A stretch of DNA of 64,000 nucleotides from an uncultured Acidobacteriota bacterium (GCA_963821435.1 CAWGDR010000004.1:878199-942198); one strand, 5' to 3'. Counted from the stretch's first letter, positions 5,865 through 33,305 are shown. Made by a program: numbers and translations. The notes: generated by a model not told the origin, from the letters alone.

Positions 5865-6494
5865 TTGGCCGCCGGCCCCGTCATCATCGGCGTCGCCGGC
5901 GGCACCGGCTCGGGAAAGACGACCGTCGCCCAGGCGATCCTGAGGCACGTCGGCGACGGGAGGATGTCGGTCCTCTTCCACGACGCCTACTACCGGGACT
6001 TCGTCGACCTTCCGAAGGACGTTCTCGACCGGAAGAACTTCGACCACCCCGACTCGCTCGAGACCGAGCTCCTGATCCGCCACGTGAAGGCGCTGAAGCA
6101 GGGGAGGGCCGTCGAGGCGCCGATCTACGACTTCCGGATCCACCGGCGCGCGGCCGAGACGCGGCGGGTCGAGCCGACGCGCGTCGTCCTCGTCGAAGGG
6201 ATCCTCATCTTCGCCGAGCCGGAGCTCCGGACGCTCTTCGACGTGAAGATCTTCGTCGACACCGACGCGGACATCCGGCTGATCCGCCGGATCCGGCGGG
6301 ACATCGCGGAGCGCGGCCGGACGCTCGAGAGCGTCGTCGAGCAGTACCAGGCCACCGTCCGGCCGATGCACCTCGAGTTCGTCGAGCCGTCCAAGCGCTA
6401 CGCCGACCTGATCGTCCCGGAAGGGGGCGAGAACGCCGTCGCGATGGAGTTCCTCTTCGCCCGCCTCGAGCAGCTCTTCAGAGAGGAGGCCTGA
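5865..6494 (+). CDS. udk: Uridine kinase
   Basis: P-loop IIGVAGGTGSGKTT and full-length udk-like sequence. TTG start. Confidence 0.9.
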   Translation: MAAGPVIIGVAGGTGSGKTTVAQAILRHVGDGRMSVLFHDAYYRDFVDLPKDVLDRKNFDHPDSLETELLIRHVKALKQGRAVEAPIYDFRIHRRAAETRRVEPTRVVLVEGILIFAEPELRTLFDVKIFVDTDADIRLIRRIRRDIAERGRTLESVVEQYQATVRPMHLEFVEPSKRYADLIVPEGGENAVAMEFLFARLEQLFREEA

Positions 6495-6886
6495 TGTTTT
6501 GCTTTCGCCGCCTCGCTTTCGTCGCTTTGTTGTTGACGGGCGCCGCCGCGGCAGCACCAAGGACCAATGCCCGAATCGAAGGGACGGTCACCGACCAGGC
6601 AGGAAAGCCGGTGCCGGGGGTCAAGATCGTCATCACCACGAAGGCCGTGTCCACATTCAAGATGGAAACCACGACCGACAAGGGCGGCCATTGGTCGGCG
6701 CTCCTCGGCGACGCCACCCGGACGTACACCTACCGCTTTGAGAAGGCAGGGTACCTGCCGGTCGAGGCCGAATGGAAAGTCCCGGCCGGGTTCCCGAACG
6801 ATGCCGATCCGAACAGGAGTTCGAGCCTGTGGGTTCGCAACGTTCAGCTCGTCGCCCAGGAGCCGGCCGCCAAGGACGCGAAATGA
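6494..6886 (+). CDS. Small secreted CarbopepD_reg-like protein (paralog of the N-domain of 4908..5852)
   Basis: GAGAGGAGG RBS. ATG overlaps the udk stop (TGATG). ARIEGTVTDQAGKPVPGVKIVITTKAVSTFKMETTTDKGGHWSALLGDATRTYTYRFEKAGY aligns with GRIQGTVTDGTGKPIPDVKVIITTKE...KTDKDGHWAAIVGDATKKYIYHFEKTDY. Confidence 0.65.
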   Translation: MFCFRRLAFVALLLTGAAAAAPRTNARIEGTVTDQAGKPVPGVKIVITTKAVSTFKMETTTDKGGHWSALLGDATRTYTYRFEKAGYLPVEAEWKVPAGFPNDADPNRSSSLWVRNVQLVAQEPAAKDAK

Positions 6887-8358
6887 GCGTTCGCCGCTCC
6901 GTCGCCGCTCTCGCTCTGGCAGCGGCTCTATCTCACTGCGCGACCGCCGCGCCGCCCGATCCGGCGGCACGCCTCGCGGGACGGGCGATGGGGGAGACGC
7001 CGCTCGTCGCCGACGTGAAGGAGCTGTGCGACCGGGTGGGGGGGAGGCCGACCGGCTCGGCCGCGAACGCGCGCGCGGTGGAGTGGATCGCCGCCCGCTT
7101 CCGCGCGGCCGGGGCGGACACCGTGACGCTCGAGGCCGCGGAGGTTCCGTACCTCTGGCTGCCGGGCTCCGCGGAGGCGGAGGCGGTCTCGCCCGAGAGC
7201 TTCCCGCTCCGCGTCGCGGCCTGCCCCGAGGCCCCCTCGACGCCCGGCGTCCTGACGGCGCGGCTCGTCGACGCGGGAGAGGGGACGCCCGCCGACTACG
7301 CGAAGCTCGGCGGGAAGACGCAGGGGGCGATCGCCCTCGTCCGGGCGAAGGAGATGAAGAGCGCGGACGACCTCTTCGGCGAGTACGTCCGGAACGGACC
7401 GCTCCTCTCGGCGGCGAAGGCGGCCGGCGTCTCCGCGATCCTCCTCCAGTCGACGCGGCCGAAGGGGCTCCTCTACCGGCACCCGATGTCCCTCGGGCGG
7501 GAAATGGCCCCCCTTCCGGTCGCGATGGTCGCGCGCGAGCAGGCCGCCCGCCTCCAGCGGCTCGCCGGGACAAGCGACGTGATCGTGCGGCTCTCGATCG
7601 TGAACCGGACGGGTCCGGCCTACGAGGCGAAGAACGTCGTGGCCGACATCCGGGGGAGCGAGAAGCCGGAGGAGATCGTCCTCCTCGGCGCCCACCTCGA
7701 CTCGTGGGATCTCGGGACGGGGGCGAACGACAACGGCATCAACGTCGCGCTCCTCGTCGACGTCCTCCGCGGGATCCGGGAGCTCGGCCTCGCGCCGAAG
7801 CGGACGATCCGGCTCGTCGCCTTCAACGCCGAGGAGCAGGGGTTGTGGGGCTCGGCCGGCTACGTGAAGCGGCACGCCGCCGAGCTGGGGCGGCACGCCG
7901 TGGCCGTGATCTTCGACGTCGGCTCGGGGCGGACGACCGGCTTCTACCTCAACGGGCGGGAAGAGCTGAGGGCGCCGCTCGACAGGGCGCTCGCCCCGGT
8001 GGCGGGCCTGGACGCCTCGCGGCACTCCAAGGACGGCGTGGACGGCACCGACAACTTCGACTTTCTCCTCTCCGGCGTCCCGAACCTCGTCGCGGACCAG
8101 GACTGGGAGCCGTACCTTCCCGACTACCACGCCGAGTCGGACACCTTCGACGCCGTCGACGCCCGCGAGGCGCGGGCGAACGCCGCGATCGCCGCGGCGG
8201 TCGTCTGGGGCTTCGCGAACGCCGACGGATTCCCCGCGCCGCGCCAGACCCGGGCCGAGGTCGAGAAGCTCCTCGTCGACGCGAAGCTCGTCGACCAGAT
8301 GAAGGCCTTCGGCCAGTGGGAGGAGTGGAAGGCCGGGACGCGGGGCGTCTCGAAGTAG
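6883..8358 (+). CDS. M28-family (PA-domain) aminopeptidase, secreted
   Basis: Signal peptide. PA domain region. M28 metal ligands HLDSW...NDNG...EEQGLWGS...DYH. The ATG overlaps the upstream stop (ATGA). Confidence 0.85.
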   Translation: MSVRRSVAALALAAALSHCATAAPPDPAARLAGRAMGETPLVADVKELCDRVGGRPTGSAANARAVEWIAARFRAAGADTVTLEAAEVPYLWLPGSAEAEAVSPESFPLRVAACPEAPSTPGVLTARLVDAGEGTPADYAKLGGKTQGAIALVRAKEMKSADDLFGEYVRNGPLLSAAKAAGVSAILLQSTRPKGLLYRHPMSLGREMAPLPVAMVAREQAARLQRLAGTSDVIVRLSIVNRTGPAYEAKNVVADIRGSEKPEEIVLLGAHLDSWDLGTGANDNGINVALLVDVLRGIRELGLAPKRTIRLVAFNAEEQGLWGSAGYVKRHAAELGRHAVAVIFDVGSGRTTGFYLNGREELRAPLDRALAPVAGLDASRHSKDGVDGTDNFDFLLSGVPNLVADQDWEPYLPDYHAESDTFDAVDAREARANAAIAAAVVWGFANADGFPAPRQTRAEVEKLLVDAKLVDQMKAFGQWEEWKAGTRGVSK

Positions 8359-12604: not shown

Positions 12605-13014
12605 GCGGGCGGGGCGTCTCGCCTTCCGTCCGGCGCCTCGCCGCGGCGGCGCTCGCGTCGGCGGCCCTGGCCGCGCTCGCGGCGAGAGGGCTCGTCTTCG
12701 ACGCTCCCCTGCGCCTCTCGCTCGCGTCGGCCGGGCGCTTCTGGCGGGCCTCGCGGGCGTCCCGGCTGCTGAACGCTTCGGCATTCCGGAGGGACGCGGA
12801 GTTCGCGAGCGCCGTCATCGCGCTCGACCGGCAGGCGCCGCTCGACGCCGACGTCAGCCTCGTCCTCCCGCCCGCGCTCCCGGACGCCGACGCGGAGGGA
12901 AAGCGGCGCGCGGCCGCGCTCGTCCTCGCACCGAGGCGGGTCGTTCTCGCGCGCGGAGAGACGGGGACGGCGAGCTTCCGGATCCGCCCGGTCCCGCGGG
13001 AGGGGGCGCCGTGA
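12601..13014 (+). CDS. Hypothetical protein (putative signal peptide)
   Basis: GTG overlapping the tyrA stop (GTGA). Ala/Leu-rich N-terminus. No recognisable domain. The frame may be a GC-content artefact. Confidence 0.3.
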   Translation: MSGRGVSPSVRRLAAAALASAALAALAARGLVFDAPLRLSLASAGRFWRASRASRLLNASAFRRDAEFASAVIALDRQAPLDADVSLVLPPALPDADAEGKRRAAALVLAPRRVVLARGETGTASFRIRPVPREGAP

Positions 13015-14066
13015 GCCGGGCCGCTGCGACGGTCCTCGGACTCCTGACGGCGGCCCTCGGACTCCTGACGGTGGCCGCGCTCCTCTCCGTCGCCCTCGTC
13101 GCCGTCCGGCAGCCGTTCGGGCCGGGGGACTACGTGGCCATCTGGGGGCTCAAGGCGCGGGCGCTCGAGAGGTCCGGGGACGTCGCCGCGCTCTTCCGCG
13201 TCGACCCGGCCGGCGCGTCCTCCCACCCCGAGTACCCGCCTCTCTGGCCGGCGCTCCTCGCGGCGTGGGGGCGCGTCGCCGGGGGGTACGACGACCTCGT
13301 CGTGACGCCGCTCTGGCCGGTCCTGGCGCTCGCCGCGTCGCTCCTCGCCGCGCGCGCGACCGCCGCCCCACCCTGGGGGCGCGCGCTCGCAGCCGCCGTC
13401 GTGGCGCTCCTTCCGTACTGGCGCCTCGACCTCGGCTACGCGGAAGGACTCCTCGCCGTCCTCCTCCTCGCCGCGCTCGGCGAGGTGCCGCGTCTCTCGT
13501 CGTCCCGCTTCGCGCCGCTCCGGCTCGCGCTCTTCCTGACGCTGGCCGCCTGGACGAAGCAGGAGGGAGCCCTCGCCGCGGCGCTCTTCGCGGCGGCGCT
13601 CGCGGCGTCCGGACGCCGGCGGGACGCGGGGCGCATCCTCGCCGCGGTGGTCCTCCTCGGCATCCTGCCGTGGCTCCTCGTTCTCGGGCGCCTGGGGCCG
13701 GGCCTCGGGCGCGCGGATTTCGATCCGCTCGGCTTCTCCTTCGCGAAGCTGGCGGCGGCGGGGGGAGCGCTCGGGCGCGAGGCGCTTCGTCCCGGGCTGC
13801 CTTGGCTCGCCGGCGCGGCCCTCCTCCTCGCGCTTGCGCCCGGGACGTGGCGGCGGAGGCGCGGGATGCTGGCGGCCGTTTTCGCCTACGCCGTTCTCCT
13901 CTTCGTCTCGTTCGGCTTCACGACGCGGGATCCCGCCTGGCTCGTCGCCTGGTCCTGGGACCGGCTGGCGTTCGTGATGGCCGCGGTGCTCGTCCCCGTT
14001 CTGGCCGAGGCCGTCACCGAGCCATTCGCCGAACCGTCGACCGAGCCTCTCGCCGGGGCCGCATGA
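13011..14066 (+). CDS. Polytopic membrane protein (likely glycosyltransferase-associated, GT39/83-like membrane domain)
   Basis: About 10 hydrophobic segments. Same strand and overlapping (ATGA) the downstream GT39 gene. Confidence 0.55.
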   Translation: MSRAAATVLGLLTAALGLLTVAALLSVALVAVRQPFGPGDYVAIWGLKARALERSGDVAALFRVDPAGASSHPEYPPLWPALLAAWGRVAGGYDDLVVTPLWPVLALAASLLAARATAAPPWGRALAAAVVALLPYWRLDLGYAEGLLAVLLLAALGEVPRLSSSRFAPLRLALFLTLAAWTKQEGALAAALFAAALAASGRRRDAGRILAAVVLLGILPWLLVLGRLGPGLGRADFDPLGFSFAKLAAAGGALGREALRPGLPWLAGAALLLALAPGTWRRRRGMLAAVFAYAVLLFVSFGFTTRDPAWLVAWSWDRLAFVMAAVLVPVLAEAVTEPFAEPSTEPLAGAA

Positions 14067-15727
14067 GAACGCCCGGCGCCGAAAGGATCTGGCTCGCGGC
14101 GCTCGCGGTGATCGTCGCCCTCGTCGTCGTTCTCTCCCACGCCGACGCCCGGAATGACTCCGTCACCGCGGACGAGCCGGTCCACCTCGCCGCCGCTCTC
14201 GCCCAGACCGCAGGGGGCGGGTGGAGCCTGAACCTCGAGCATCCGCCTCTCGCCAAGGAGCTCTTCGGCCGGGCCGCCCGCCTCTCGGGGGCGCGGGACG
14301 GCCCGCTCTCTTTCCGGTCGTTCTTCCGGTCCTGCCAGGACGTTCTCTTCCGGAACCGCGGCGGCGTCGCCGTGGACAGCGTCCTTCTTCCGGCCCGGGC
14401 CGTCACGATCGGGTTCTTCGCCATGCTGATCGTGGCGTCGTTCGCGGCGGCCGGGGGAGGAGGGGCCGGCCTCCTCGCGGCCGCCCTCGTGGCGGGAGAA
14501 GCGGCCTTCTTTCCGCACGGACATCTCGCGACGACCGACGTTCCCTTTGCGGCGCTCGGCGTCGCGGCCGTCGCGGCGACGCTCCGGCTCCGCGACAAGC
14601 CCTCGTTCTCTAACGCGCTTCTCGCGGCGGTTCTCCTGTCGCTCGCGGCGTTGACGAAGTTCACGGGGCTCCTTCTTCTCCCCGCCGCGGCGTTCCTTCT
14701 CCTCCTGCCGGGGCCCGCGGGGGGCGAGAGCCGCCGCCACAACGTGGTCACTTTCGCGATCGGCCTTCCTCTCCTCGCGGCCCTTCTCACGGCGGGGCTC
14801 CTCCGTCTCTGGAACCCCCCGTCCCCGCGCGAGAGCCTCGCGGTTCTCTCGGGCCTCTACCGGCTGCCGCCGGAGGACCGGGCACGGGTCGAGGCGATCG
14901 GCGCCGTCGATCCTGCGTCGGCCCGGTACGCCGCCGGCCTCCTCGTGAACCTCCGCCAGGCCGAGGCAGGCCGGCAGACGTGGTACCTCGGAAACGTGAC
15001 GGGACATCCCTCCGCGGCGTACCACCCGGTGGCTCTCGTCGTCACCGCCCCGGCGATCTGGCTCGCCCTCGTTGCCGCGGGGGCCGCCTTCGCGTTCGGG
15101 CGCGGCGCCCCGTTTCGCGCGCGGGCACTCCTTCTTTCCGGAGCGCTCGTCTTCCTCCTCTCGCTTCCCGGCCCGCGCATCGGGGTCCGGCACGTTCTCC
15201 TGCCGGCCGCGCTGATCTCGGCGGGAGCGGCGGCGGCGCTGGCGGCGAGGGTGGCCCCCCGCCTGCTCCGGAGCGTCGTCCTTCTCGGCGCCGCCCTTTC
15301 GCTCGTCCCACTCGCCCTCGGCCGGACGATCGGCCGCGAGGGGCTCGCGGCGCGATTCTTCGCACGCCCGGCGGTCGCCGACTCGAACCTCGACTGGGGG
15401 CAGGACCTCCTCCGCCTCGGGCGGGAGCTCCCGGCCCGGGGCCTGAAGCCGGAATCTCTCGCGATCGCCTACTTCGGAGGGGACGAGCCCGCCGTGCGGA
15501 TTCCGGCCGCCGCGGACCTCCTGCGCGGCGGCTCGCTCGAGGGGCGCCGACTCCTCGCCGTCTCGCGCCAACTCCTCCTCGTCGGCCCCGAGGCCGCCCT
15601 CGATCCCGAGGGGGTGCCGGGCGCGCGCGCCGCCGTCGCCGCGACCCGGGACCCCCGCGCGCGGTTCCTATTCCGGGCGGGGAACTCGATCGACGTCTTC
15701 GAGACTCAGCCCGCCGGGAGCCGGTAG
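14063..15727 (+). CDS. Glycosyltransferase family 39 (ArnT/PMT_2-like) membrane protein
   Basis: NDSVTADEPVHLAAALAQTAGGGWSLNLEHPPLAKELF matches the PMT_2 DE...H...HPPL.K region. Multi-TM. Confidence 0.75.
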   Translation: MRTPGAERIWLAALAVIVALVVVLSHADARNDSVTADEPVHLAAALAQTAGGGWSLNLEHPPLAKELFGRAARLSGARDGPLSFRSFFRSCQDVLFRNRGGVAVDSVLLPARAVTIGFFAMLIVASFAAAGGGGAGLLAAALVAGEAAFFPHGHLATTDVPFAALGVAAVAATLRLRDKPSFSNALLAAVLLSLAALTKFTGLLLLPAAAFLLLLPGPAGGESRRHNVVTFAIGLPLLAALLTAGLLRLWNPPSPRESLAVLSGLYRLPPEDRARVEAIGAVDPASARYAAGLLVNLRQAEAGRQTWYLGNVTGHPSAAYHPVALVVTAPAIWLALVAAGAAFAFGRGAPFRARALLLSGALVFLLSLPGPRIGVRHVLLPAALISAGAAAALAARVAPRLLRSVVLLGAALSLVPLALGRTIGREGLAARFFARPAVADSNLDWGQDLLRLGRELPARGLKPESLAIAYFGGDEPAVRIPAAADLLRGGSLEGRRLLAVSRQLLLVGPEAALDPEGVPGARAAVAATRDPRARFLFRAGNSIDVFETQPAGSR

Positions 15728-16793: not shown

Positions 16794-17150
<357 letters not shown>

Positions 17151-17210
17151 TGCTGAGATGAGGCCGCTGGAGCGACTGACGGTCGCGTACTAAGCGCAAG
17201 GCGCAACACA

Positions 17211-18164
17211 CTAGGCGCCTCCTAGGTGTTCTTTGAAGTGGAAGCCGCGCACTTCGATGAACTTAAGCACGAGCCAGTGGAGGGCATGATTGACTTGAGC
17301 CGAAAGGTCGGTCGACCAGCTGAAGACTGGTGAGGTGCCATCCGCCCCGGTTAGCTCGAAGAAGTACGCCTGAGAAGCGGCGTCCGCGAAGTAGAAACGT
17401 GACTCCCGCATGTTGTTGCCACGCGAGAGCATGGGGACGCCGAACCGAGGCTGTGAAAAAGCCAGCTGATAACCGCGCGCGAGTTCTTTGACGTCGTAGT
17501 GAAAAGAGACCTTGTTTCGAACAAAGAACAACGCTTTGTTTAGGGGATCCGAGGAAAGCTCACCGGCCGCCGCGTCGACGATTGCTCGCCACGCCTTCTT
17601 TCCCGGCTTAGGACAGACGCGTTGAACTTCCTTAAACAGCCGTCCCTTCAGGACAGTGGGATGAGCGCGAATCACTTCAAGAAGCTCGTGCATTATGCCG
17701 ACCAGTGTGCGGAACAAGTGCGCTTCGAGCCCTGCGTATTGACCGCGGTGGGTTGAAGGGATGACTGGGTCCGGCACTGGTATCTCCGAGAGGAGCACCT
17801 GGCTGAGGACAACATCTTTAAGATCGTCGTGAATGACGGCGAGAGCAAGGAAGAATCCGCACTCCTCACGTGTAGCGTCGGCGCTGGGCTCGAAGGCCTC
17901 TTTCGGGAAGGACTCGAGCGATACGAGCGCGTCGGTGTGTTGTGCGTATGTCACAGTTTCGGGTGGACGCCGCCTAACGATATCGCGATCAGCGGCGCGC
18001 GCGGCGAGGCTGCCGCAACGCGTCGCCAGGCCGCCGTCCCTTTTTTGAGCCGGATCCGAAGAGAACTTCAACCCAGGGAGTCTGCAGAAGCGCGGGCGTA
18101 TACCGAAGCCGCAGCCCCGAACGATTTCGGTGAGCGTGAGCGAGCACGTCCCTGCGCGCCACAC
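17211..18164 (-). CDS. Hypothetical protein (start uncertain; internal candidates GTG 17954 / ATG 17693)
   Basis: Long ORF whose 3' two-thirds lie in distinctly lower-GC DNA. No recognisable domain. The maximal start would overlap the divergent neighbour. Confidence 0.4.
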   Translation of the reverse strand: MWRAGTCSLTLTEIVRGCGFGIRPRFCRLPGLKFSSDPAQKRDGGLATRCGSLAARAADRDIVRRRPPETVTYAQHTDALVSLESFPKEAFEPSADATREECGFFLALAVIHDDLKDVVLSQVLLSEIPVPDPVIPSTHRGQYAGLEAHLFRTLVGIMHELLEVIRAHPTVLKGRLFKEVQRVCPKPGKKAWRAIVDAAAGELSSDPLNKALFFVRNKVSFHYDVKELARGYQLAFSQPRFGVPMLSRGNNMRESRFYFADAASQAYFFELTGADGTSPVFSWSTDLSAQVNHALHWLVLKFIEVRGFHFKEHLGGA

Positions 18165-18225
18165 GCGGAGTCACCTGCACGTCCGTCATGCGCCCACTCT
18201 GAATCGGCAGATACACTCCGTCCCA

Positions 18226-19797
18226 ATGGCTGATCGTCCGGCGCCTCCCATGGATCTGGTCGTCGTTCTCCTGCACGGCATCGGCGATATCGCGCCTGGA
18301 CAGGTGGTCGAGGCGGTCGTGCGGACGCTGCAGAAGCGGCTCGGCGCCGACGTCGCGCAGCCGGCGCGGCCGCTTTCAACCGGTGTCGATAAGCAGGCCG
18401 GCGACCACGCGCGCGTCGCGAGCACCGAACTCGCCTGGCGCGGCCGGAACATCGCGATCGTCGAATTCAACTGGACGACCGTCGCCGGCAAGATCCGGCT
18501 GTTGCGACCGCTCGACGCGCTGGCGAAGTTCGCCGCGTTTCTCGCGGAGTTCCCACGCGTCGGTGCATCGGCGCGCCACCCGCGTCTGCAGAAGGTGGCC
18601 GCGTGGGCCGGCGCATTTCAGCGCGGCCTGCTGCTGGTGACCCTCGCTGCCGTTGCCGCGTCGGTCATTGAAATCGTGTTGCGCACGGACATGGCGGAGC
18701 GCGTCGCCGTGACGGCTCAGCGCGCGCTCACGCCGGGCGATCACCCGCTCGAAATCGAGACGCTCTTCGGCACCGTGCCGATCAAAATGTCGCCGGGCGA
18801 GGTGACGAAGTCTCCCAACGTGCTGGCCGCGGCGATGGCGGTCATGTGGTCGAGTCGCGAGCTGCTCGAGCGGCGGGAGCTCTGCACGCTTGCCGTGCAG
18901 ACTTTGTATTTCACCGCCTTCCTCTACTACACGGTGCTCGTGGTCGGATACATCTACTTCCTGCCGATCCACCTGATCCAGCGGATCCGTGGCCGCCGCC
19001 TCTCCGCCGCCAACGGACTGTGGCGCACGCTGGCCGTGAGCTCATTCGTCATGTTCCTTGTCTCGCTGGCGGCATTCGAGCTCCCCGTCTTCGCACTTTG
19101 CGCCGCCGCCTTCGTCCGACATCCCGAAACGTTCGGCGTGACCAGCGCGTGGGATCTCTCTTTCTACGCAGCAGTCGCCGGCTTCACCGGCTGGCTGCTG
19201 CTCCGCGTTTCCGCCGCGATCTCCAATCTCCTCCGCGACGTAATTCATTATCTGGCGCCCGACGCGAGCGGGTCGCTGCTCCCCCATCAACGCAAGATCC
19301 GCGAAGAGCTGGCGCAGCTGCTCACGACGCTGACGAAGACCGGCCCGGCACGCCTGGTCCTCGTCGCCCACAGCCTCGGAACCGTGATCGTCACCGACAT
19401 GCTGTGCTGGCGCGCGCACGAAACGACGACGACGCCCGCCGTGACCATCGACCTCGTCACCGCCGGCTCGCCGCTGCGCCGCACCATCGCGCGTCTTCTT
19501 CCCGACCGCCCGCGTCCGCTCGACCTGCGCGACGAGCTCCGCCGTGCCGGCGTCGAACGCTGGTTCAACTACCACCGCCTGCTCGACTACGTTGGCCAGG
19601 CCCTGACGTGGTCTGCGCTACCGCTCGACCTGGTCGGCTGGCCGCGAAAGCCCGGCGATCCGACGTCGGGGATCCGCGATCGGCTTCTCACGCCGCGTTG
19701 GCGGTGGCCGCTGTTTCACGCCGAGTATTGGAGCGATCCGCGGTTCTTGAAGGCGATTGCGGAAGAGGTGGTCATGATGCGGTTAGGAGAGGTGTAG
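18226..19797 (+). CDS. Membrane-embedded alpha/beta-hydrolase (lipase/esterase-like)
   Basis: N-terminal VVVLLHGIGD (oxyanion-hole HG). A central block of 4-5 TM helices. LVLVAHSLGTVIV (GHSLG nucleophile elbow) and later conserved D/H residues. Confidence 0.6.
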   Translation: MADRPAPPMDLVVVLLHGIGDIAPGQVVEAVVRTLQKRLGADVAQPARPLSTGVDKQAGDHARVASTELAWRGRNIAIVEFNWTTVAGKIRLLRPLDALAKFAAFLAEFPRVGASARHPRLQKVAAWAGAFQRGLLLVTLAAVAASVIEIVLRTDMAERVAVTAQRALTPGDHPLEIETLFGTVPIKMSPGEVTKSPNVLAAAMAVMWSSRELLERRELCTLAVQTLYFTAFLYYTVLVVGYIYFLPIHLIQRIRGRRLSAANGLWRTLAVSSFVMFLVSLAAFELPVFALCAAAFVRHPETFGVTSAWDLSFYAAVAGFTGWLLLRVSAAISNLLRDVIHYLAPDASGSLLPHQRKIREELAQLLTTLTKTGPARLVLVAHSLGTVIVTDMLCWRAHETTTTPAVTIDLVTAGSPLRRTIARLLPDRPRPLDLRDELRRAGVERWFNYHRLLDYVGQALTWSALPLDLVGWPRKPGDPTSGIRDRLLTPRWRWPLFHAEYWSDPRFLKAIAEEVVMMRLGEV

Positions 19798-19856
19798 GGG
19801 GCGTTGGGCGCAGGCGGAGTTTGTTCAGCCGCAAGTGCCGCAGTCTCGCCTCGTCG

Positions 19857-19884
19857 TGGAGGGGTGCAATGGGAATTGCGGCAA
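19857..19884 (-). repeat. REP-like hairpin element
   Basis: gaggggtgcaatgggaattgcgg, reverse orientation. Confidence 0.6.
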
Positions 19885-19995
19885 GCGCGAGGAGGGGAGG
19901 CAACGCATAGATAGATCTCGTAGTGCAAGAATGCCAGTCAGGCCGGACGGAACCGAGAAAGCCGGCGAACAGGGCCGGACTTTCTAGGCGAGATA

Positions 19996-20026
19996 GGCCC
20001 CGGGAATTCCCATTGCGCCCCTACAG
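19996..20026 (+). repeat. REP-like hairpin element
   Basis: ggccccgggaattcccattgcgcccctacag. Confidence 0.7.
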
Positions 20027-20162
20027 TGGCACGCAGGAGGACGGGAAGGGCCGCCGGGGGACTGCCGCCTCGCGGCGGCCAGAAAGAGCGCATGAAGGGC
20101 TCCTGACCGGCCAGAATGTCCGTTTACGGGACCGGATTCAGAGCGCGAGACCCTGGTCCGTG

Positions 20163-20204
20163 CGCGCCAGCGGCCCCGGCAGCTTCCATTGCACCCCTAC
20201 AACG
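20163..20204 (+). repeat. REP-like hairpin element with gcgccag leader (degenerate)
   Basis: gcgcgccagcggccccggcagcttccattgcacccctacaac. Confidence 0.55.
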
Positions 20205-20281
20205 CATTGCAGCTCAGGGACCGGGGAACGTGCCGCGTTGAAGCCTGGCTGTAGCGACCGAGGCCGCTGGCGCTAGAATTC

Positions 20282-20724
20282 GTGAAAGCCGACAAGGGGA
20301 GTCCGATGCCGACGAAAGAGCCGCTTCGCATCGAGATGACGCTCGCCGCCGGCCCGGAGGCCGACGCCCGCGTCCTGGACGCCGATGCCCGGAACCTGAA
20401 GCGCCAGATCGAAGGACTCGGCGCCAGTCGGTCTCCCTCGTCTCGGCGGGGCCCGCCCCTGCGGGCACGCGCTCCCCCGAGATGGTGGCCGCCGGCAGGC
20501 TCCTCGTCGGGCTCCTGCCGACGCTCCTCCCGAAGCTGATCGACTTTCTCCAGAGCTGGCTCCCGAACCGCGAGAACCGGACCGTGAAGTTCAAGGTGTC
20601 GGACGGCAGCCGGTCCGTGGAGTTCGAGTACGCGCCCTCGCTGATGTCCAAGGACGACGCGCTGGCCTTGATCGCCGGCATGAAGGACGCCGCGCGGGAC
20701 GGCGGGAAGAACGCCGCGCGCTGA
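20282..20724 (+). pseudogene. Small hypothetical protein upstream of the caspase gene, split over two frames
   Basis: 20282..20539 and 20482..20724 overlap in different frames. The C-terminal part (TVKFKVSDGSRSVEFEYAPSLMSKDDALALIAGMKDAARDG) looks like a folded alpha+beta domain. Confidence 0.4.
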
Positions 20725-20758
20725 GCGCGGCCCGGAGTCGGGAGAACCCGGAGCGAGG

Positions 20759-22727
20759 ATGGCCGGCAAGTACGCCCTCCTGATCGGCACGAGTTCCTGC
20801 TTTGCCGATGCGCGCTTTCCCGCGCTCGAGAAGCCGTCGAAGGACGTCGCCGACCTCGAGGCCGTCCTCAAGGACACGTCGATCGGAGGTTTCGACGAAG
20901 TCCGCGCTCTTCTCGATCCAACGTGCAAGAAGGCGCGCCGCGAGGTCCCGCCACTTCGCCGGCCGGAAGCCGGATGACCTCGTCCTCCTCTTCTTCGCCG
21001 GACACGGCGTGAAGGACGACTACGGAAAGCTTTACCGAATCTCGGCCGACACCGACCGTGACCTCCTGACGGGACGGCCCTCGGCGCCGACTTCGCAACA
21101 CCCAGGAGATGGACCAGAGCCGCAGCCGGAGGCAGGCTCTCTGCTCCTCGATTGCTGCCACAGCGGGGCGCTCGCCGAAGGGGTCCGGGCTGCGGACGCA
21201 TCCGCCGGAGCTCTCGAGGCCTTTACGGGCCGCGGGACAGGCAAGGTAATTATCACGGCCTCCGACTCGTACGAGTTCGCATGGGAGAGGGGCGAGACCC
21301 CGGCCGGATTCGAGAACTCGCTCTTTACGCACTTCCTCGTAGACGGCCTTAGGACCGGGAAGGCCGACGTGAACGGGGACGGCATCGTGACTCTTGACGA
21401 GCTCTACAAGTACGTCCACCAAAAGGTCGTTGAGAAGACTTCGAGCAAGACCCCTCAATGGAAACTCGCGGGCGCCGCGGGTGACATCGAGATCGCGCGA
21501 AACCCGGCGCCCAGCACCCCGCTCCCCAGGGAGCTGGCTGACATGCTGAACAACCGTTCCCACAATATAGGGAACTACTTATTGCCGATCTCAAGAGAGT
21601 TGTTGAAGGGGATCATCTGGGCTTGCGGCGAACGGCCATCGAGACCCTTGAACAGTTATCCCACGACAAAGATCGTCGCGTCAGGGAGCTTGGAATCGAG
21701 GCGCTAAAGGAGCATTCAGACGTGTCGGCTGCGGCCGCGATGCCTCCCTTGTCGTCGCCCGGCATTGATCTCCCGAAGACTCCTCCTGCGAAGATCGTCT
21801 CGGAATCAACTGCCCTCATCCCGTCTGGGCCTGCGGTGAGTGGAGATACCGAAGTGCTGGCGGGGCGGTGGCGAGTCGATCGGGAACTGGGTCGAGGCGG
21901 ATTCGGTGTTGTCTTCTTGGCATTTTCGATCTTCACCTGGAGCAGACCCAGGCGGTCAAAGTGCTCGACCCCGCGATGGTGGGCCGGCCGGAGCTTTTGA
22001 AGCGATTTGGCCGGGCAGTGGCGCTGATGCGAAAGCTCGTGCATCCGCGAATAGTCCGGGTATTCGATTACGTGGAAGAAGCGGACAAGAAGCTGGCGCT
22101 GTTCAGCATGGAGTACGTTGAGGGAAGCAGCGTGCGGCTTCTCTTGGAGGCGTCGAGGGTTCGGAAGGAAGTGTGCCACTTGACCTGAAGTCTGAAGATC
22201 CTGATGCAGGTACTTGAGGCGCTTCAGGAGGCGCACGGAAACGGCGTCTTACACCGGGACGTGACACCCGCGAACATTCTGCTCGGCAGGCAGAACAGCA
22301 AAAGATCTTCTTGCGAATCCGTCCGGACTTGGCTCTCGATGTAAAGCTCGTCGACTTTGGTATCGCTGGGGCCATTGAGCGGAGCGAGCTATCCCAGAGG
22401 AGCCGGGTCCTGGGCACAGCAGCTTACGTAGCGCCCGAGGTGCTATTGGAGGGACGATCGATCGGCGCAGGAGTGGACGTGTACGGGGTCGGGGCGGTGG
22501 CTTACGAACTGCTGCTCGGGCGGCCGCCGGTGGGAAGGTTCGAGGGATTACGCGAAGTCCGAGCAGAGATAGACCCACGACTTGACGAGCTGGTTCTGGC
22601 AATGCTCGCTACGGACCCCGACAAGAGACCTTCGGCCGCAGAAGCCCGGGGAAAGATTGAGGCCGCTCGCGAGGAAACGAAAAAAGAAAGTCGTAGAGCC
22701 GTGGGAAGGTCAGAGCCCCCCCCATAA
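20759..22727 (+). pseudogene. Caspase-like (peptidase C14) - HEAT repeat - Ser/Thr protein kinase fusion, disrupted by at least 5 frameshifts and one in-frame TGA
   Basis: Caspase p20: YALLIGTSSCFADARFPAL..., FAGHG (His), LLDCCHSGAL (Cys). HEAT repeats: RTAIETLEQLSHDKDRRVRELGIEALKE. Kinase: GRGGFGVVFLA, AVKVL, HRDVTPANILL, VDFGIA, YVAPE. The pieces are spread over three frames. Confidence 0.7.
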
Positions 22728-22974
22728 AGGAACAGGGCGATGCAGAGTCGGCGACTTCCTCGCCGCCGCAAAATCCACCGGAGCCGGAGCATGAACCCAC
22801 GAGACCCGGCTCGATGGAGCCGAGGCCGAGCTGTTCGGAGCCGCCCAAGTCACGAAGGCCGTGCGCGGGCTGGCGCGGGCCTTGGCGGCTTGATGAGTCT
22901 AGCAGTGCTAAATGTGGCTGACTCGAGACTCTGGGAAGGAAGTGTCGGAACAACAACCCACTCCTGCCGCTATG

Positions 22975-23095
22975 CCGACCTCGCGCGGCGACACGAGACC
23001 AGACGTGACCAATACCACCGTGCCGACCTCGCGCGGCGACACGAGACCACAAGCGACCAATACCACCGTGCCGACCTCGCGCGCCGATACCAAGA
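22975..23095 (+). repeat. 48-bp tandem repeat, about 2.5 copies
   Basis: ccgacctcgcgcggcgacacgagacca[ga/ca]cg[t/a]gaccaataccaccgtg twice, then ccgacctcgcgcgccgataccaag. Encodes PTSRGDTRP(D/Q)(V/A)TNTTV. Confidence 0.8.
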
Positions 23096-23678
23096 TTGCC
23101 TCAGCGCCTGCGAAGATGAAGGCAACGGCGCCTCCTTCGCCGCCGACAAAGACTGCCGCGTCCAACACGATGAGTGAACTTCAGAATGCCTGCGATGGCG
23201 GAGAGGCCAACGCGTGCACAAACCTCGGCATTAGGTACGAGAATGGAAAAGGAGTCGATCCGGATTTCCCTCGGCGGTGGAGCTCTACAAGAAGGGCTGC
23301 ATCGGCGACAACGCTGATTCCTGCACTTATCTAGCGACGATGTACCAGGAAGGAAGAGGAGGCAAAAAGAATTTGTCCTCAGCATTGGCGTATTATCGAA
23401 GGGGCTGCGACGGTGGAAGCTTTCTTGGCTGCAGCGGGCTCGGCAAGACTCTACGAATCTGGTGGAGGGGGAATCGAGCGGGATTTCCCTCTCGCGGTGG
23501 AGTACGACAAGAAAGGCTGCATCGGCGACTTCGCTAGTGCCTGTTCCTTTCTAGGAGCGATGTACGAGTACGGAAGAGGAGTCGAAAAGAATCGCCCTCT
23601 GGCAGTGGTGTATTACCGAAGGGGTTGTGACGGTGGAGACGCTTATGGCTGCACCCAACTGAGGCGGCTTGGTCACGG

Positions 23679-23707
23679 TGTAGGGGCGCAATGGGGATTA
23701 CGACGCC
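23679..23707 (-). repeat. REP-like hairpin element
   Basis: gtaggggcgcaatggggattacgacgccc. Confidence 0.6.
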
Positions 23708-23728
23708 CTTTGGCGCGTGCGGACGAGT

Positions 23729-23750
23729 GTAGGGGTGCAATGTCGCCGCC
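23729..23750 (-). repeat. REP-like element, partial
   Basis: gtaggggtgcaatgtcgccgcc. Confidence 0.4.
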
Positions 23751-23817
23751 TGTAAAGGCAGCGTTCCAGCCAATGGGAGTCCGGCGGGTCTGATCCCGGA
23801 TTCTTCGTCAGGGATAG

Positions 23818-23848
23818 TTTAGGGGCGCAATGGAAATTGCGGCCCGCG
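23818..23848 (-). repeat. REP-like hairpin element
   Basis: tttaggggcgcaatggaaattgcggcccgcg. Immediately precedes composite copy A. Confidence 0.6.
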
Positions 23849-23859: not shown

Positions 23860-24359
23860 AGTGGGGTGGCAGTTTCGCGGAGGTCGTAGAACTCCCTGGT
23901 GTAACCGAGTCATTCAGAGGCAGTTCCGGGCTGAGAACGAGTTGAATATTCTCTGTTCCTCTCGAGAACTTGGTTCGCCCAGCCGACGGAATGGGAGCCA
24001 CTCTTCTCCCCCGCGAACTTCAGTGTAGGTCCGCGGTTAACAGATGCCCCGCGATCCACGTCGCGGGGTTTCGCGTCTGAAGAGCGTGTAGTCAGGAGCG
24101 TTTCCGGGCGCCGCATCTGGCGCGGGCCGTTCTCTGCCGTCTTGAAACTGAGAACGGTCGCCAACGTTGAGTGGCCGAATATCGGGCGTGACGGCGCTCT
24201 CTGACGGCCTGAAATGTCAACAGCGCCTGAGAGCGGTTAACAGGTCTGGCTGGCGAAAGAGGGCGTGGTTAACAGCAACCCGGGTTTGCGCCAAGGTGAG
24301 GGCGTCACTCTGGCCTCTACGCGCCACAGCCCCCGGCAATTCCCATTGCGCCCCTACAG
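23860..24359 (+). repeat. Composite att-like repeat, copy A (P-arm module 0 + hairpin + diverged core + modules 1 and 2 + terminal REP 24329-24359)
   Basis: gtggggtggcagtttcgcgg...cattcagaggcagttccgggctgagaacgagttgaatattctc...ggttcgcccagccgacggaatgggagccactcttctcccccgcgaac...gtccgcggttaacagatgccccgcgatccacgtcgcggggtttcgcgtc... Collinear with copy 0 from the core onward. Confidence 0.8.
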
Positions 24360-24644
24360 CTTCCGATCTCCTTGCCTTCAGCGAAGACATCTCACCTCTC
24401 GGATAGTCCTCACGCCCTTCGGATAGGGTGTAAGAGACGCCGCCCCCGCGCTCCTCTCGCTCTGAAGTATGGGAGGAAGCCTTCTCCCCTGAACGACTTC
24501 CTCTCCCCTGGTCGGAGCTGCAGAGGGCTTCGGATGTGAGTGGCCCACGGGTTGCGGATTCGGCAGGAGGAGGAATTTGGGAAATCGCGCCATTCAACGT
24601 TGTTCCACCAGGGCGCAAGGTGCGGATCTAAGAAAGGAGAGGTT

Positions 24645-25871
24645 ATGAACACGACGAGAAGAACGACTACCGACTTGCTCGGAGGCTTAATGCTCTGGTT
24701 CGTCTTTGCCCTGCTTTTCCTTCCCGTGCTTGCAGGAAGGGCGGACGCTAGCGACCGCATCTACTGGACCGATGCGGTAGCCGGCACGATCCAGCGAGCG
24801 AATCTCGACGGCTCGGGTGTCGAAACTCTGGTAACGGGTCTATCCGAACCCCAAGGAATTGCCATCGATGTGGCAGGTGGCAGGATCTACTGGGTTGAGA
24901 TCGGAAGTTCCCTGAAGATCCGCCGGGCCAATCTGGACGGGTCTGGAATGGAGGATCTCGTGGGGTCCGTCGGTCCAGTCGGAATCGCGCTGGATCTGGC
25001 CGGCGGCAAGATGTATTGGACCGATGTGTTCGTGAACGGAGGAATTCAGCGAGCGAACCTGGACGGCTCGGGTGTAGAAGACCTCGTGCCTATCGTGGCC
25101 GATCGCGAGGGAATTGCTTTGGACTTGGCTGGCCGCAAGATGTACTGGACGGACCGGAGTTCGGGAGCGAGCACGATTCAGCGGGCCAACCTAGACGGTT
25201 ACGAGGGCGAAATCCTGATAGCGATAGGGCTCATCGATCCTCGGGGTATCGCTCTCGACGTGGGCGGCGACAAGATGTACTGGACGGACACTCAAGCCGG
25301 CAAGATCCAGCGCGCCAGTCTGAGCGGCTTCGCTGTGGAAGATCTCTTGGTCTCCGGATTGGTGAATCCAGCCGGAATTGCTTTGGACCTTGCTGACGAA
25401 AGAATGTATTGGACCGATTTCGGTACGCAGAAGATCCAGCGAGCCAAACTGGACGGCTCGGGCGTGGAAGACGTCGTGACGGGGCTTTCGATCCCGGTTG
25501 GCATTGTAATCGGACCGGGTCCCAGCGTCGTAACCGTTGACGTCGATATCAAACCCGGCGGCTTTCCGAACAGCATTAATCCGAGGAACCGGGGGGAGAT
25601 TCCGGTAGCCATCCTTTCGACAGCCAGCTTTGATGCGACCGCCGTCGCCGCGGCCAAGGTCCGCTTTGGTGCGACGGGTAATGAAGCGGCCCCCCTTCGG
25701 TCTGCCCTGGAGGATGTCGATGGCGATGGGACCGTCGATCTCACCCTGCACTTCAGCACTCAGGCCACTGGAATTCAGTGCGGTCATACCGCTGCCTTCC
25801 TTACGGGAGAGACCGTCAGCGGAAAGCTGATCCAGGGGTCCGACTCCATCACGACGGTGGGCTGCAAGTAG
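24645..25871 (+). CDS. Secreted six-bladed YWTD (LDL-receptor class B) beta-propeller protein
   Basis: AAGGAGAGG RBS and signal peptide. Six repeats of (R/K)IYWTD...IQRANLDGSG.E.LV. C-terminal beta-rich domain ending in C. Confidence 0.8.
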   Translation: MNTTRRTTTDLLGGLMLWFVFALLFLPVLAGRADASDRIYWTDAVAGTIQRANLDGSGVETLVTGLSEPQGIAIDVAGGRIYWVEIGSSLKIRRANLDGSGMEDLVGSVGPVGIALDLAGGKMYWTDVFVNGGIQRANLDGSGVEDLVPIVADREGIALDLAGRKMYWTDRSSGASTIQRANLDGYEGEILIAIGLIDPRGIALDVGGDKMYWTDTQAGKIQRASLSGFAVEDLLVSGLVNPAGIALDLADERMYWTDFGTQKIQRAKLDGSGVEDVVTGLSIPVGIVIGPGPSVVTVDVDIKPGGFPNSINPRNRGEIPVAILSTASFDATAVAAAKVRFGATGNEAAPLRSALEDVDGDGTVDLTLHFSTQATGIQCGHTAAFLTGETVSGKLIQGSDSITTVGCK

Positions 25872-26039: not shown

Positions 26040-26084
26040 TTTCTCAAAGACTCTGCGCACCGCGGGATAACCCATACATGAGAA

Positions 26085-26365
26085 AGCAGTTTGGGCCTGA
26101 GAACGGGTTGAATGATCTCTGTTCGGTCTGAGAACGAAGTTCGCGCAGCGGACCGACTGCGGAGCCATCTCCTTTACCTGCGAATCGCCACCCGTTTTGC
26201 AGCCCAGCCGACCGCGCGAAAACCTCGCGGGGGTTCGCGTCTAAACCCCAAACTGTCAAAACGATTCTCCCGATGATCTCCACGGGATACCGCAATTCCC
26301 ATTGCACCCCTAGAAGGGCGTGACTCTGGTCTCGACGCGCCACAACCCCCGCAATTTCCATTGCG
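26085..26365 (+). repeat. Composite att-like repeat, copy D (hairpin + core 26147-26157 + diverged module 1 + two REPs at 26281-26306 and 26321-26365)
   Basis: ggcctgagaacgggttgaatgatctc...gaagttcgcgcagcggaccgactgcggagcca. Then ...cgcgaaaacctcgcgggggttcgcgtctaaa..., ccgcaattcccattgcacccctag and ctggtctcgacgcgccacaacccccgcaatttccattgcgg. Confidence 0.75.
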
Positions 26366-26382
26366 GTCCTGAACCTGAGGGC

Positions 26383-27194: not shown

Positions 27195-27742
27195 AGAAGT
27201 GAGGTGGCAGTATCACGCAGGCTCAGCGCACCGCGGAGCAAGGTATTCAGTCAGAAGCGGTCCCGGGCTGAGAACGGGTTGAATGTTCTCTGCTCGGCCT
27301 GAGAACGCGGTTCGCCCAGCCGACCGACTGCGGAGCCACAATTCTCCCCGCGAACTTGAGATGGTTTCGCGGTTAACAGGTACCCCGCGATTCACGTCGC
27401 GGGGTTTTGCGTCTAAAGGGCGTGTGGTCAGAAGGGTTTGCGAGTGGCGCGCCCATCGGGCCGCAGAACGTCGCTTGAAACAGAGAACGGCGCGGCGCAC
27501 TCGAGGAGTCGTTCTCGGGCACGCCGACGCTCTTTGCCGGTCTGAAATGTCGAGAGCGGCTGAGAGCGGTTAACAGGTGGGACGAGGCGCCATCGCGCTG
27601 GTTAACAGCTCGCGGCGCGTTGCGATCTGACTCAGGTCTCTACGCGTCATAGCCCCCGGCAATTCCGATTGCGCCCCTACACCCCCCGGCAATTCCCATT
27701 GCGCCCCTACAGCCCCCGGCAATTCCGATTGCGCCCCTACAG
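27195..27742 (+). repeat. Composite att-like repeat, copy B, the most complete (module 0, hairpin, core 27328-27338, modules 1 and 2, then three tandem REPs at 27651-27682, 27683-27712 and 27713-27742)
   Basis: ...gggctgagaacgggttgaatgttctctgctcggcctgagaacgcggttcgcccagccgaccgactgcggagccacaattctccccgcgaacttgag...cgcggttaacaggtaccccgcgattcacgtcgcggggttttgcgtctaaaggg...gagagcggttaacaggtggg...ctggttaacagctcg...(cccccggcaattcc[g/c]attgcgcccctaca[c/g])x3. Confidence 0.85.
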
Positions 27743-27836
27743 ATACACACGATGTAAGCCTGCGCCAATGTTCATCGAAGTTCTATGCCCAAGGCCGAGC
27801 GGAACTCTTATGCGAAGATGATTCAGAAGTCACGGA

Positions 27837-29147: not shown

Positions 29148-29530
29148 TTTAGGGGCGCAATGGGAATTGCCGGGGGCTATCTCGCCAGGAACCCAGGACC
29201 CGAGTTTCCTCTGTTCCGGCCGGCCAGACTGGTCTTCCACCCAGCGCCGGCCCGGGGAGCGAGGAGGCTCGGGGTCGACTGAGGCACGTATGCGTCTGTT
29301 CCGGCACGCTATGGGGTTCTGGCGAGGCACAGGGGTTTCCGCGTGGAGCGTCGAGGTCCGCTGATTCTCTGCCTCTGAAACTGAGAACGGCAAGCCTCGC
29401 TCGGAGCGCCAGATTCGTGCCTGACCGCGCTCTCTGACGGCCCGAAATGTCGAGAGCGGCTGAAAGCGGTTGGCAGGCCCAGCGGGGCGAGGCTCCGCTG
29501 GTTAACAGACTCTTCAATGCCGGGATGAGG
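29148..29530 (+). repeat. Degenerate composite repeat, copy I (reverse REP 29148-29176 + 33-bp tail + decayed module 1 + module 2)
   Basis: tttaggggcgcaatgggaattgccggggg then ctatctcgccaggaacccaggacccgagtttcc. Then ...ggggtttccgcgtggagcg...ctgaaactgagaacgg...ctctctgacggcccgaaatgtcgagagcggctgaaagcggttggcagg...ctggttaacagac. Confidence 0.6.
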
Positions 29531-29543
29531 CGCATCCCGCCCC

Positions 29544-30757: not shown

Positions 30758-32408
<1,651 letters not shown>

Positions 32409-32411
32409 GGC

Positions 32412-32774
32412 TCACTTCCCTTTCATACCGCCGATACCGAGCGCGGGACCGGGCGAGAACGCAGGACCGTTCGCCTCGGCGGCTTTTTCGATACCGGTGA
32501 TCGGCGCTTCGGTGAACAGGTAGCGGCGCAGCATCTGATCGAAATGCGCGCTGTGACGCCGGATCCACTCCATCAGCATCGTCGCGTGCTCGATCTCTTC
32601 GTTCTTGTTGTGAAGCAGCACATCCTTCAACGGTGGATCGGCACACGCGTCAGCGCGTTGCTGGTACCAGTCGATTGCCTGCAGCTCCTCCATCAGGCTG
32701 ACGATCGCGCGGTGCATCTCGCGCGTCTCCCCCGACAGGAGCTCCGGCGGCTCGTGAAAGGTGTCACTCGTCAT
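32412..32774 (-). CDS. Encapsulated ferritin-like cargo protein (EncFtn) with C-terminal encapsulin targeting peptide
   Basis: Start at MTSDTF (GGAGAA RBS). ...HRAIVSLMEELQAIDWYQQRADACADPPLKDVLLHNKNEEIEHATMLMEWIRR...YLFTE is the EncFtn core. The C-terminal ...PALGIGGMKGK resembles the family-1 cargo-loading peptide. Stop lies 4 nt before the encapsulin start. Confidence 0.85.
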   Translation of the reverse strand: MTSDTFHEPPELLSGETREMHRAIVSLMEELQAIDWYQQRADACADPPLKDVLLHNKNEEIEHATMLMEWIRRHSAHFDQMLRRYLFTEAPITGIEKAAEANGPAFSPGPALGIGGMKGK

Positions 32775-33305
32775 ACCGTTCTCCAGAAGGAAGGGGCCGG
32801 GTGGAAGTCCCCGGCCGGTGGGTAGGCCATCCACGGGTAGAGGTCGAGGGGCAGGACGCCCCCAAGCTCAGCGGTTCGGTCGGCCGCGAGCACCGTGGAG
32901 AGAGTGTTGAGCATGAGCACTCCTAGACGCACACCTTGTCCGAGGTAACCGCAGGATTCTTCTTCTTCAGATTCACTCGGGATCTCCTTTGGCTCCGGCC
33001 CTTAGTCGCAATTCGGCGGCCACTTCTTCTGCAGGCGCGGGGCTTCATGCCGCCCCTCGCCTCTGCGCGGCTACAGGGGCGTTCCGGCCACCGATGGGGG
33101 ACGAGAGAGCTCAAGTGCTTGCAGCGCAGGCTGTTCTTGAGGAATGACGGGCTCAATCAAAGATGAAGTGCGCTCGAGACGAAGGGCCTCTTTTCCGGGC
33201 CCCCTCCCGTGAGCGCCTCTTGAGCTCGCCGTGCATGGAAGAGCCGAGCCGTGCTTCTGCCCGACCTGGTTGCAGTCTCTTCCGTTCCCGTTGAAGGAGA
33301 TACAT

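Follow-up and report, generated by a model that had tools for sequence, protein, structure and literature searches.

The window analysed here is a stretch of 64,000 nucleotides (nt) of DNA from an uncultured Acidobacteriota bacterium (GCA_963821435.1, CAWGDR010000004.1:878199-942198), and the subject is a group of genes lying at 17.2-23.9 kilobases (kb), next to a tRNA-Asn gene. At the core of the group are a small open reading frame (ORF) and a caspase gene, and judged by profile comparison these are a member of the known EACC1-caspase two-gene system and not a new kind of system. As the sequence stands, the EACC1, caspase-kinase and Sel1 genes of the group are unreadable. The group as a whole is probably not one system. 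It represents instead the opening stretch of a variable region, mosaic in make-up and assembled by horizontal transfer, that follows tRNA-Asn in a Thermoanaerobaculia-like metagenome-assembled genome (MAG).

The original prediction had described a sensor/effector module that could not be assigned to any named defence family. This no longer holds, because the caspase passes the NCBIfam model for EACC1-associated caspases and the small ORF is a homologue of EACC1. The assignment to the EACC1-caspase system is based on the score against that model, on the match of the small ORF to EACC1 in hhalign, and on the presence of a single membrane helix rich in small residues. The genes and domains concerned are as follows.

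20306-20724, + strand: EACC1-family gene of 138-139 amino acids (aa), one frameshift at about 20425
20759-21545, + strand: caspase (C14) domain of the EACC1-associated type, with four frame changes inside and one at the end
21546-21853, + strand: HEAT-like helical segment and Pro/Ser/Ala-rich linker, from a three-frame translation
21854-22727, + strand: Hanks-type Ser/Thr kinase domain with five frame changes and a stop about 25 codons past the C-lobe, aligned to the kinases P0013 and P0016
22912-23793, + strand: Sel1-repeat gene with five Sel1 units and two frame changes at about 23260 and about 23445, from a three-frame translation

The EACC1-caspase pair

The Pfam family Peptidase_C14 matches the raw ORF fragments over 20802-21707. 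After frame correction the caspase scores 64 bits against Peptidase_C14 and 152.5 bits against NF047832 ("caspase, EACC1-associated type"), for which the cutoff is 140 and the homologue P0001 reaches 165 bits. The His/Cys dyad is present in the motifs FFAGHG and LLDCCHSGA. These scores confirm the C14 caspase that was predicted from the FAGHG and DCCHSG motifs, and its connection to cell-death or conflict signalling is likewise upheld through the EACC1-caspase family. The nearest intact caspases (P0001 and others) are 541 aa long and about 76% identical, and they are always preceded by a 139-aa gene (in the loci L001, L002 and L092 and in two Logan contigs). The C-terminal part of these nearest relatives consists of a linker, a transmembrane helix and an extracellular domain.

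The small ORF upstream of the caspase had been read in two frames, which is correct: it is the EACC1-family gene with its single frameshift. Once this is corrected, 123 of 139 residues (88%) are identical to the intact gene at L001:9547-9963. A profile of the small-ORF family was compared with the Pfam-verified EACC1 domain of P0113, a protein in which EACC1 is fused to a caspase, and matched it end to end over 117 columns (hhalign 97.4%, E 1.6e-11). Two of the nine family members, both among the more distant ones, match PF19953 (E 2.7e-4). The protein has one hydrophobic segment of the membrane-helix type at residues 60-84, MVAAGSLLVGLLPTLLPKLIDFLQS, rich in small residues. G64 and P72 are invariant in the EACC1 family alignment, and in the window copy the Ser beside G64 is changed to Arg inside this conserved helix. 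A conserved G-T-[RK]-[SG] directly ahead of the helix is a candidate cleavage site. Weighing against the assignment, the window EACC1 sequence has no direct match in Pfam or NCBIfam and the L001 protein has no direct match in Pfam; membership thus rests on profile comparison together with transitive matches.

The EACC1-caspase pair was described as "System 4" by Kaur, Burroughs, Iyer & Aravind (2020, eLife 9:e52696; PMC7159879) and is prevalent in actinobacteria and sporadic in proteobacteria. For one pair only, EACC1-KrAvs12 of Ktedonobacter racemifer, is it known that the protease cuts EACC1 and that the C-terminal fragment set free in this way makes pores in the membrane and kills the cell (Evans et al. 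2025, bioRxiv 10.1101/2025.11.14.688446). Because EACC1 is a pore-forming effector in that work and the small ORF is its homologue, the small ORF would belong to a family of protease-activated pore-forming effectors and would not be the adaptor that it had been taken for. By analogy with EACC1-KrAvs12, the caspase-like protease of the window would be switched on via its variable C-terminal part. It would then cut EACC1 between the N-terminal autoinhibitory domain and the C-terminal part with the membrane helix and beta structure, and the freed fragment would oligomerise into membrane pores, leading to cell death.

The window pair resembles the known system in gene order and architecture. The 5' gene is small, with an alpha+beta N-terminal part, one small-residue-rich membrane helix and a beta-rich C-terminal part, and the 3' gene opens with an EACC1-associated caspase that is apparently followed by a variable C-terminal region. 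It differs in that this C-terminal region would hold a HEAT-like segment and a Hanks kinase in place of a STAND/Avs sensor or a transmembrane helix plus extracellular domain, in that the host is an Acidobacteriota bacterium, in the divergence of its EACC1 sequence beyond a direct Pfam match, and in that both genes are frameshifted. Evans et al. (2025) drew an analogy to the bacterial gasdermin-protease systems, where a neighbouring caspase-like protease also frees a pore-former from autoinhibition; EACC1, however, is a protein of about 130 aa with one membrane helix and has no sequence relation to gasdermin.

In two related loci, L001 (11636-12490, 18827-20988) and L092 (1980-5259), the intact EACC1-caspase pair lies among DUF4412, NTP_transferase and DUF4301 genes and is not adjacent to a tRNA gene. 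Since the relatives have a conserved chromosomal neighbourhood away from a tRNA, the window copy may have been displaced or transferred.

The kinase and the question of a fusion

Pkinase, too, is already matched by the raw ORF fragments. The frame-corrected kinase reaches 147 bits against this family, covering positions 2-257 of the 263 in the profile, and the motifs GRGGFG, AVKVL, HRDVTPAN, DFG and APE can all be read, in agreement with the complete set of Hanks-kinase motifs originally proposed. The HRDVTPAN loop, with its K-to-T change, is common to the intact kinase homologues and is therefore no sign of decay. The closest relatives are membrane-bound Ser/Thr kinases of Acidobacteriota and Chloroflexota with Lcl_C or FGE-sulfatase ectodomains at the C-terminus (P0013-P0043), which share 55-63% identity in the kinase domain as well as the HRDVTPAN loop, an unusual form of the catalytic loop. 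In contrast to these proteins, the window kinase lacks the approximately 100 extra N-terminal residues, the coiled coil, the transmembrane helix and the extracellular domain, and follows the caspase in frame.

The HEAT repeats of the original prediction stand in part. There is a HEAT-like helical segment at a conserved position, which aligns to the equivalent site (residues ~265-320) of many caspase homologues with 30-41% identity. However, it is only one short helical segment, the Pfam HEAT_2 match is sub-threshold and is found only in the homologue P0001 (E 1.8e-4), and this is the weakest element of the reading.

A genuine, lineage-specific caspase-HEAT-kinase fusion is plausible but unproven, and we lean towards it. 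The HEAT-like segment, the linker and the N-lobe of the kinase share one stop-free frame from about 21539 to 22000, so the junction is in frame, and the break falls exactly between domains, in the linker. The HEAT-like segment is itself part of the caspase family architecture. In addition, EACC1-type caspases are known to swap their C-terminal domains, with about 50 alternatives that include "signaling enzymes" (Kaur 2020, PMC7159879). Against a fusion stands the fact that none of 731 significant matches to the concatenated reading region spans both the caspase and the kinase; the caspase-type matches cover 48-50% of the region and the kinase-type matches 39-42%. The apparent fusion could for this reason be the product of a deletion that placed the 5' portion of an EACC1-type caspase gene next to an internal part of a separate membrane Ser/Thr kinase gene, the two never having been one gene and both being dead. 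The missing N-terminal and C-terminal parts of the kinase fit this explanation. So does the similarity to L001, which is 80% at the DNA level overall and higher up to about 21545 but collapses at that point, where the GC content falls from 0.67 to 0.60. We consider such a deletion a substantial but lesser possibility.

Frame changes: decay or consensus error

The frame changes were mapped by frameshift-aware alignment of intact homologues to the DNA of the window. In total there are 13, each of 1-2 nt: one in the EACC1 gene, ten in the caspase-kinase region and two in the Sel1 gene. Within the caspase-HEAT part they lie at about 20948, 21073, 21099, 21140 and 21544, and within the kinase at about 21924, 22172, 22188, 22285 and 22328-22340. 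At least five had been noted in the caspase-kinase region, where ten are now mapped, and the compensating -1/+1 pair and in-frame TGA that had been noticed correspond to the pair 22172/22188, which skips the TGA at 22186-22188. Programmed frameshifting is not a credible explanation when 2 kb contain ten shifts, of which three fall inside 70 nt.

The original alternatives, a decaying gene or a bad assembly, are still the right pair of options. Very recent genuine decay and local consensus error both come close to an even chance, decay at that level or just above it and error at that level or just below. For decay speaks the state of the surrounding sequence. The window is part of a 947-kb contig that is otherwise clean, with intact flanking genes, long ORFs and full-length Pfam matches on both sides, so that noise, if it is the cause, must be limited to some 3.5 kb. 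Moreover, 11 of 162 caspase positions that are invariant in 12 other homologues are altered in the window, compared with 0-4 in leave-one-out controls. These changes and the Ser-to-Arg change in the EACC1 helix fit relaxed constraint, although noise could also cause them.

Several observations weigh on the other side. A comparison of the window with L001 gives a ratio of nonsynonymous to synonymous substitutions (dN/dS) of 0.21 in the caspase and 0.16 in EACC1, on a par with the 0.20 of a pair of intact genes, and the window-specific changes carry an excess at third codon positions like that of the intact lineages. By these substitution patterns, the caspase and EACC1 genes show selection until very recently. 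The lesions include no larger deletion, and the peptide is kept in every shifted frame, even across the three closely spaced shifts. All three genes are complete and sensible once they are frame-corrected. Judging from the contig names of related MAGs, the sequence apparently stems from a MAG project based on long reads. A comparison of the first 14.3 kb of L001 with that of L002, which comes from the same source and has an identical caspase, gives 39 indels, mostly of 1-2 nt and outside homopolymers, and 357 mismatches. The indel density equals that of the window locus. This noise occurs in patches (about 900-7800 and 12700-14300) beside clean stretches, and the ABC-transporter and P-type ATPase genes of L002 are fragmented by it. 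On this evidence it is nearly an even call that the frameshifts arose as errors in the consensus of a metagenome assembly from long reads, and that the true locus encodes an intact EACC1, a caspase-HEAT-kinase of about 655 aa and a Sel1 protein; we place it slightly below even.

Neighbouring genes and the one-module explanation

Two intact genes precede the EACC1 gene in the segment.

17211-17954, - strand: intact gene for a 247-aa protein from a widespread family without characterised members, a solitary accessory gene
18226-19797, + strand: intact 523-aa alpha/beta-fold serine hydrolase with a membrane-spanning insertion, a rare solo gene

The first had been read as a protein of 317 aa (17211-18164). 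Homologues align only to residues 72-313 of that reading, which shortens the gene to 247 aa. That it has no detectable domain was correct, as there is no match in Pfam, PDB profiles, PADLOC or PHROGs. The family comprises 784 representative clusters with a typical length of about 247 aa, and no plasmid match was found for it. No conserved neighbour was seen in 80 metagenomic loci; integrases and resolvases are the commonest neighbours but occur in only 4-5 of the 80. A single-sequence AlphaFold2 model of the protein was uninformative, with a predicted local distance difference test (pLDDT) score of 35.

The hydrolase has a nucleophile elbow of the Sm-x-S-x-Sm type and a Ser-Asp-His triad, and the motifs LHGIGD and AHSLG as well as the Asp and His are invariant among its homologues. 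Its core is split by an insertion of about 250 residues made up of long helices, of which three or four are hydrophobic; the hydropathy profile has three strongly hydrophobic stretches, one of them of two-helix length. The split catalytic fold with a helical membrane insertion is therefore as predicted, but the elbow is AHSLG and not GHSLG, and the helices number about 3-4 and not 4-5. The family is rare, with 12 homologues. These are solo genes in four differing contexts, with a RecQ helicase, transposases, toxin-antitoxin pairs, and Fic or unrelated enzymes nearby. None has a protease beside it at any of the four loci, and the hydrolase has no PADLOC match. As the homologues are solo and never lie beside a caspase or EACC1 gene, the role of membrane-targeting effector of the module that had been suggested for the hydrolase is not upheld.

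An alpha/beta hydrolase that is activated by a protease has been described in Lysobacter capsici (LcHydrolase/LcCaspase), where it is a soluble zymogen of about 290 aa (Evans et al. 2025, bioRxiv 10.1101/2025.11.14.688446). In the window too, an alpha/beta-hydrolase gene is found less than 1 kb from a caspase system. The window hydrolase differs from LcHydrolase in its 523 aa, its membrane insertion of about 250 residues and its membership of a separate family with 12 members. A zymogen of that type is ruled out here by the architecture and by the genomic context.

It is very improbable that all genes from 17211 to 22800 belong to a single defence module of the sensor/effector type that was acquired horizontally and in which the hydrolase would be the effector and the small ORF the adaptor. 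The genes are adjacent within one repeat-bounded, low-GC segment, and the Lysobacter example shows that alpha/beta hydrolases can be protease-activated effectors. However, a tblastn search of 92 fetched loci gave no co-occurrence of the five components outside the window. Intact caspase homologues do have the small EACC1 gene upstream, but the intact EACC1-caspase loci contain neither the hydrolase nor the 247-aa gene, and the divergent pair is accordingly no part of a module with the caspase. Nor do the hydrolase and the 247-aa gene adjoin each other elsewhere. The hydrolase and the EACC1 gene are about 480 nt apart, with REP-like (repetitive extragenic palindrome) elements in between, the 247-aa protein lacks a PADLOC match just as the hydrolase does, the characterised protease-associated hydrolase is of the small soluble kind, and the small ORF itself belongs to a known effector family. 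Because co-occurrence is lacking outside the window, the five genes are best described as having come together by chance within a variable region.

The Sel1 gene at the end of the group scores 98.8 bits after frame correction. Its N-terminal region contains three 48-nt tandem repeats (22950-23090; two copies are 94% alike), which encode a stretch of low complexity rich in Thr, Pro and Arg, and at the 3' end the gene extends into a REP-like motif (23679).

Borders and composition of the segment

The segment at 17.2-23.9 kb coincides exactly with the interval enclosed by a long direct repeat, whose first copy begins inside the tRNA gene.

16794-16868, + strand: tRNA-Asn (GTT), found with ARAGORN and with 75 bits against the Rfam tRNA family; left anchor of the variable region
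16858-17164, + strand: repeat copy 1, beginning in the tRNA 3' end (CTGCGGAGCCA); left border, from self-blastn and alignment
23901-24359, + strand: repeat copy 2, made up of a pseudo-tRNA 3' half, the core and about 300 nt; right border

The core of the repeat, including the last bases of the tRNA, is equal at 25 of 26 positions (16862-16887 compared with 23994-24019). The GC content is 0.69-0.78 upstream of the tRNA-Asn and 0.57-0.70 over 17.0-24.0 kb. The low-GC DNA beside a tRNA gene in the original prediction is thus confirmed both by the drop in GC and by the bounding repeats. A gluQ-like gene precedes the tRNA-Asn, as it does in Thermoanaerobaculia/Acidobacteriota MAGs, and related MAGs of this group have 77-89% DNA identity to the gluQ-like/tRNA-Asn part of the window. 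One of them (L088) has other gene content downstream of the tRNA-Asn.

Since the segment adjoins a tRNA gene, has a lower GC content and lies between direct repeats that include the tRNA 3' end, horizontally acquired is a fair description of it, even without an integrase. It has in common with tRNA-linked genomic islands the position beside tRNA-Asn, the lower GC content, a far border marked by a repeat of the tRNA 3' end and trailer, and a cargo of accessory or conflict genes. It differs from them in that no integrase is found in the 17-58 kb scanned, and in that the repeat is 300-450 nt long and present in at least 10 copies on a single strand. In Pfam and PHROGs scans of the ORFs at 17-63 kb no integrase was seen, the only hit of this kind being an rve transposase (49886-50917).

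The tRNA-Asn-derived repeat array

The repeat of 300-450 nt lies on the + strand throughout and splits about 42 kb of accessory genes (16.9-58.4 kb). In addition to the two border copies the following were found.

26076-26380, + strand: repeat copy
27245-27681, + strand: repeat copy
29333-29531, + strand: repeat copy
36377-36582, + strand: repeat copy
38292-38601, + strand: repeat copy
41802-42248, + strand: repeat copy
46569-46714, + strand: repeat copy
58251-58366, + strand: repeat copy

Copies outside the tRNA gene open with a degenerate tRNA-Asn 3' half that terminates in CTGCGGAGCCA. The approximately 125 nt that follow are nearly invariant, also across Acidobacteriota MAGs, and are better conserved than nearby coding DNA. 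The same element is found behind the tRNA-Asn of other Thermoanaerobaculia/Acidobacteriota MAGs (L087-L091). Reverse-complementing the anticodon loop of the tRNA-Asn (CTGTTAACC) gives exactly the motif GGTTAACAG, which occurs 15 times in the window where 0.09 would be expected, with three sites per full repeat copy. One site is on the - strand (16824-16832) and 14 are on the + strand within repeat copies (e.g. 16902, 17101 and 17133). The motif could be a protein-binding palindrome (GTTAAC) or a site that pairs with the anticodon.

Little was found that would make the repeat a structured RNA. Only one of 36 pairs covaries in RNAalifold (covariation term +0.94), and there is no match to an Rfam family. 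Single copies fold into structures more stable than those of shuffled sequences (z -2.8 and -4.2), with an overall structure that varies among copies. Two patterns searched against IMG/VR as a phage attP gave no match. It seems unlikely, though conceivable, that tRNA-Asn anchors an array without an integrase in which the module is one "cassette", the array being either a new site-specific system for gene capture, with a recombinase acting in trans, or a new family of non-coding RNAs that interact with the tRNA.

A second repeat is the REP-like palindrome GCAATTCCCATTGCGCCCCTACAG of about 25 nt; the long tRNA-derived repeat, too, has this motif as its 3' end. Three copies lie between the hydrolase and the EACC1 gene (19857-20206, both orientations; repeat families D8, D15, I21 and I22). 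The intergenic copies, which occur in both orientations, are listed below.

19857-19879: GCAATTCCCATTGCGCCCCTACAG copy
20005-20030: GCAATTCCCATTGCGCCCCTACAG copy
20181-20206: GCAATTCCCATTGCGCCCCTACAG copy
23679-23701: GCAATTCCCATTGCGCCCCTACAG copy
23818-23840: GCAATTCCCATTGCGCCCCTACAG copy
24338-24363: GCAATTCCCATTGCGCCCCTACAG copy
26294-26319: GCAATTCCCATTGCGCCCCTACAG copy
27661-27746: GCAATTCCCATTGCGCCCCTACAG copies as three tandem 30-nt units
29148-29170: GCAATTCCCATTGCGCCCCTACAG copy

Other cargo of the variable region

Further genes of the variable region are of diverse kinds.

24540-25871, + strand: 443-aa protein with an N-terminal hydrophobic segment and YWTD/low-density lipoprotein (LDL)-receptor class B beta-propeller repeats
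30979-31596: truncated alpha/beta hydrolase beside the encapsulin gene
31593-32834, - strand: encapsulin shell protein (Linocin_M18, full length) with an EncFtn-like cargo gene upstream
39845-41388, + strand: extracytoplasmic function (ECF)-type sigma factor and zf-HC2 anti-sigma factor
42344-43951, - strand: B12-binding radical S-adenosylmethionine (SAM) enzyme
45861-46507, + strand: MazE/PIN toxin-antitoxin pair
49886-50917, - strand: rve-family transposase

The YWTD repeats of the 443-aa gene are visible in the DNA as repeats of 126-135 nt. A sulfatase-like ORF on the - strand (56250-57970) matches its profile only over the first 131 of 301 positions, and the phase of its third-position GC content (GC3) switches twice. 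This ORF may be a further gene with frameshifts; a window-wide scan of the GC3 phase was not discriminating.

Implications

A locus that had been flagged as an unassignable defence-like module consists of a recognisable EACC1-caspase pair with unrelated neighbours, and it should not be counted as a new system. The tRNA-Asn-derived repeat array is the more unusual feature around it. The patchy noise of 1-2-nt indels in assemblies from the same source means that pseudogene calls in such MAGs need read support.

If the frameshifts are errors, the locus may be a live EACC1 system with its caspase under the control of a fused Hanks kinase. The novelty at the core is possibly a new C-terminal domain, the kinase, on an EACC1-type caspase. 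If the kinase fusion is true, a phosphorylation-type input or output would join the domains that license pore formation by EACC1, and the system would be extended to the Acidobacteriota.

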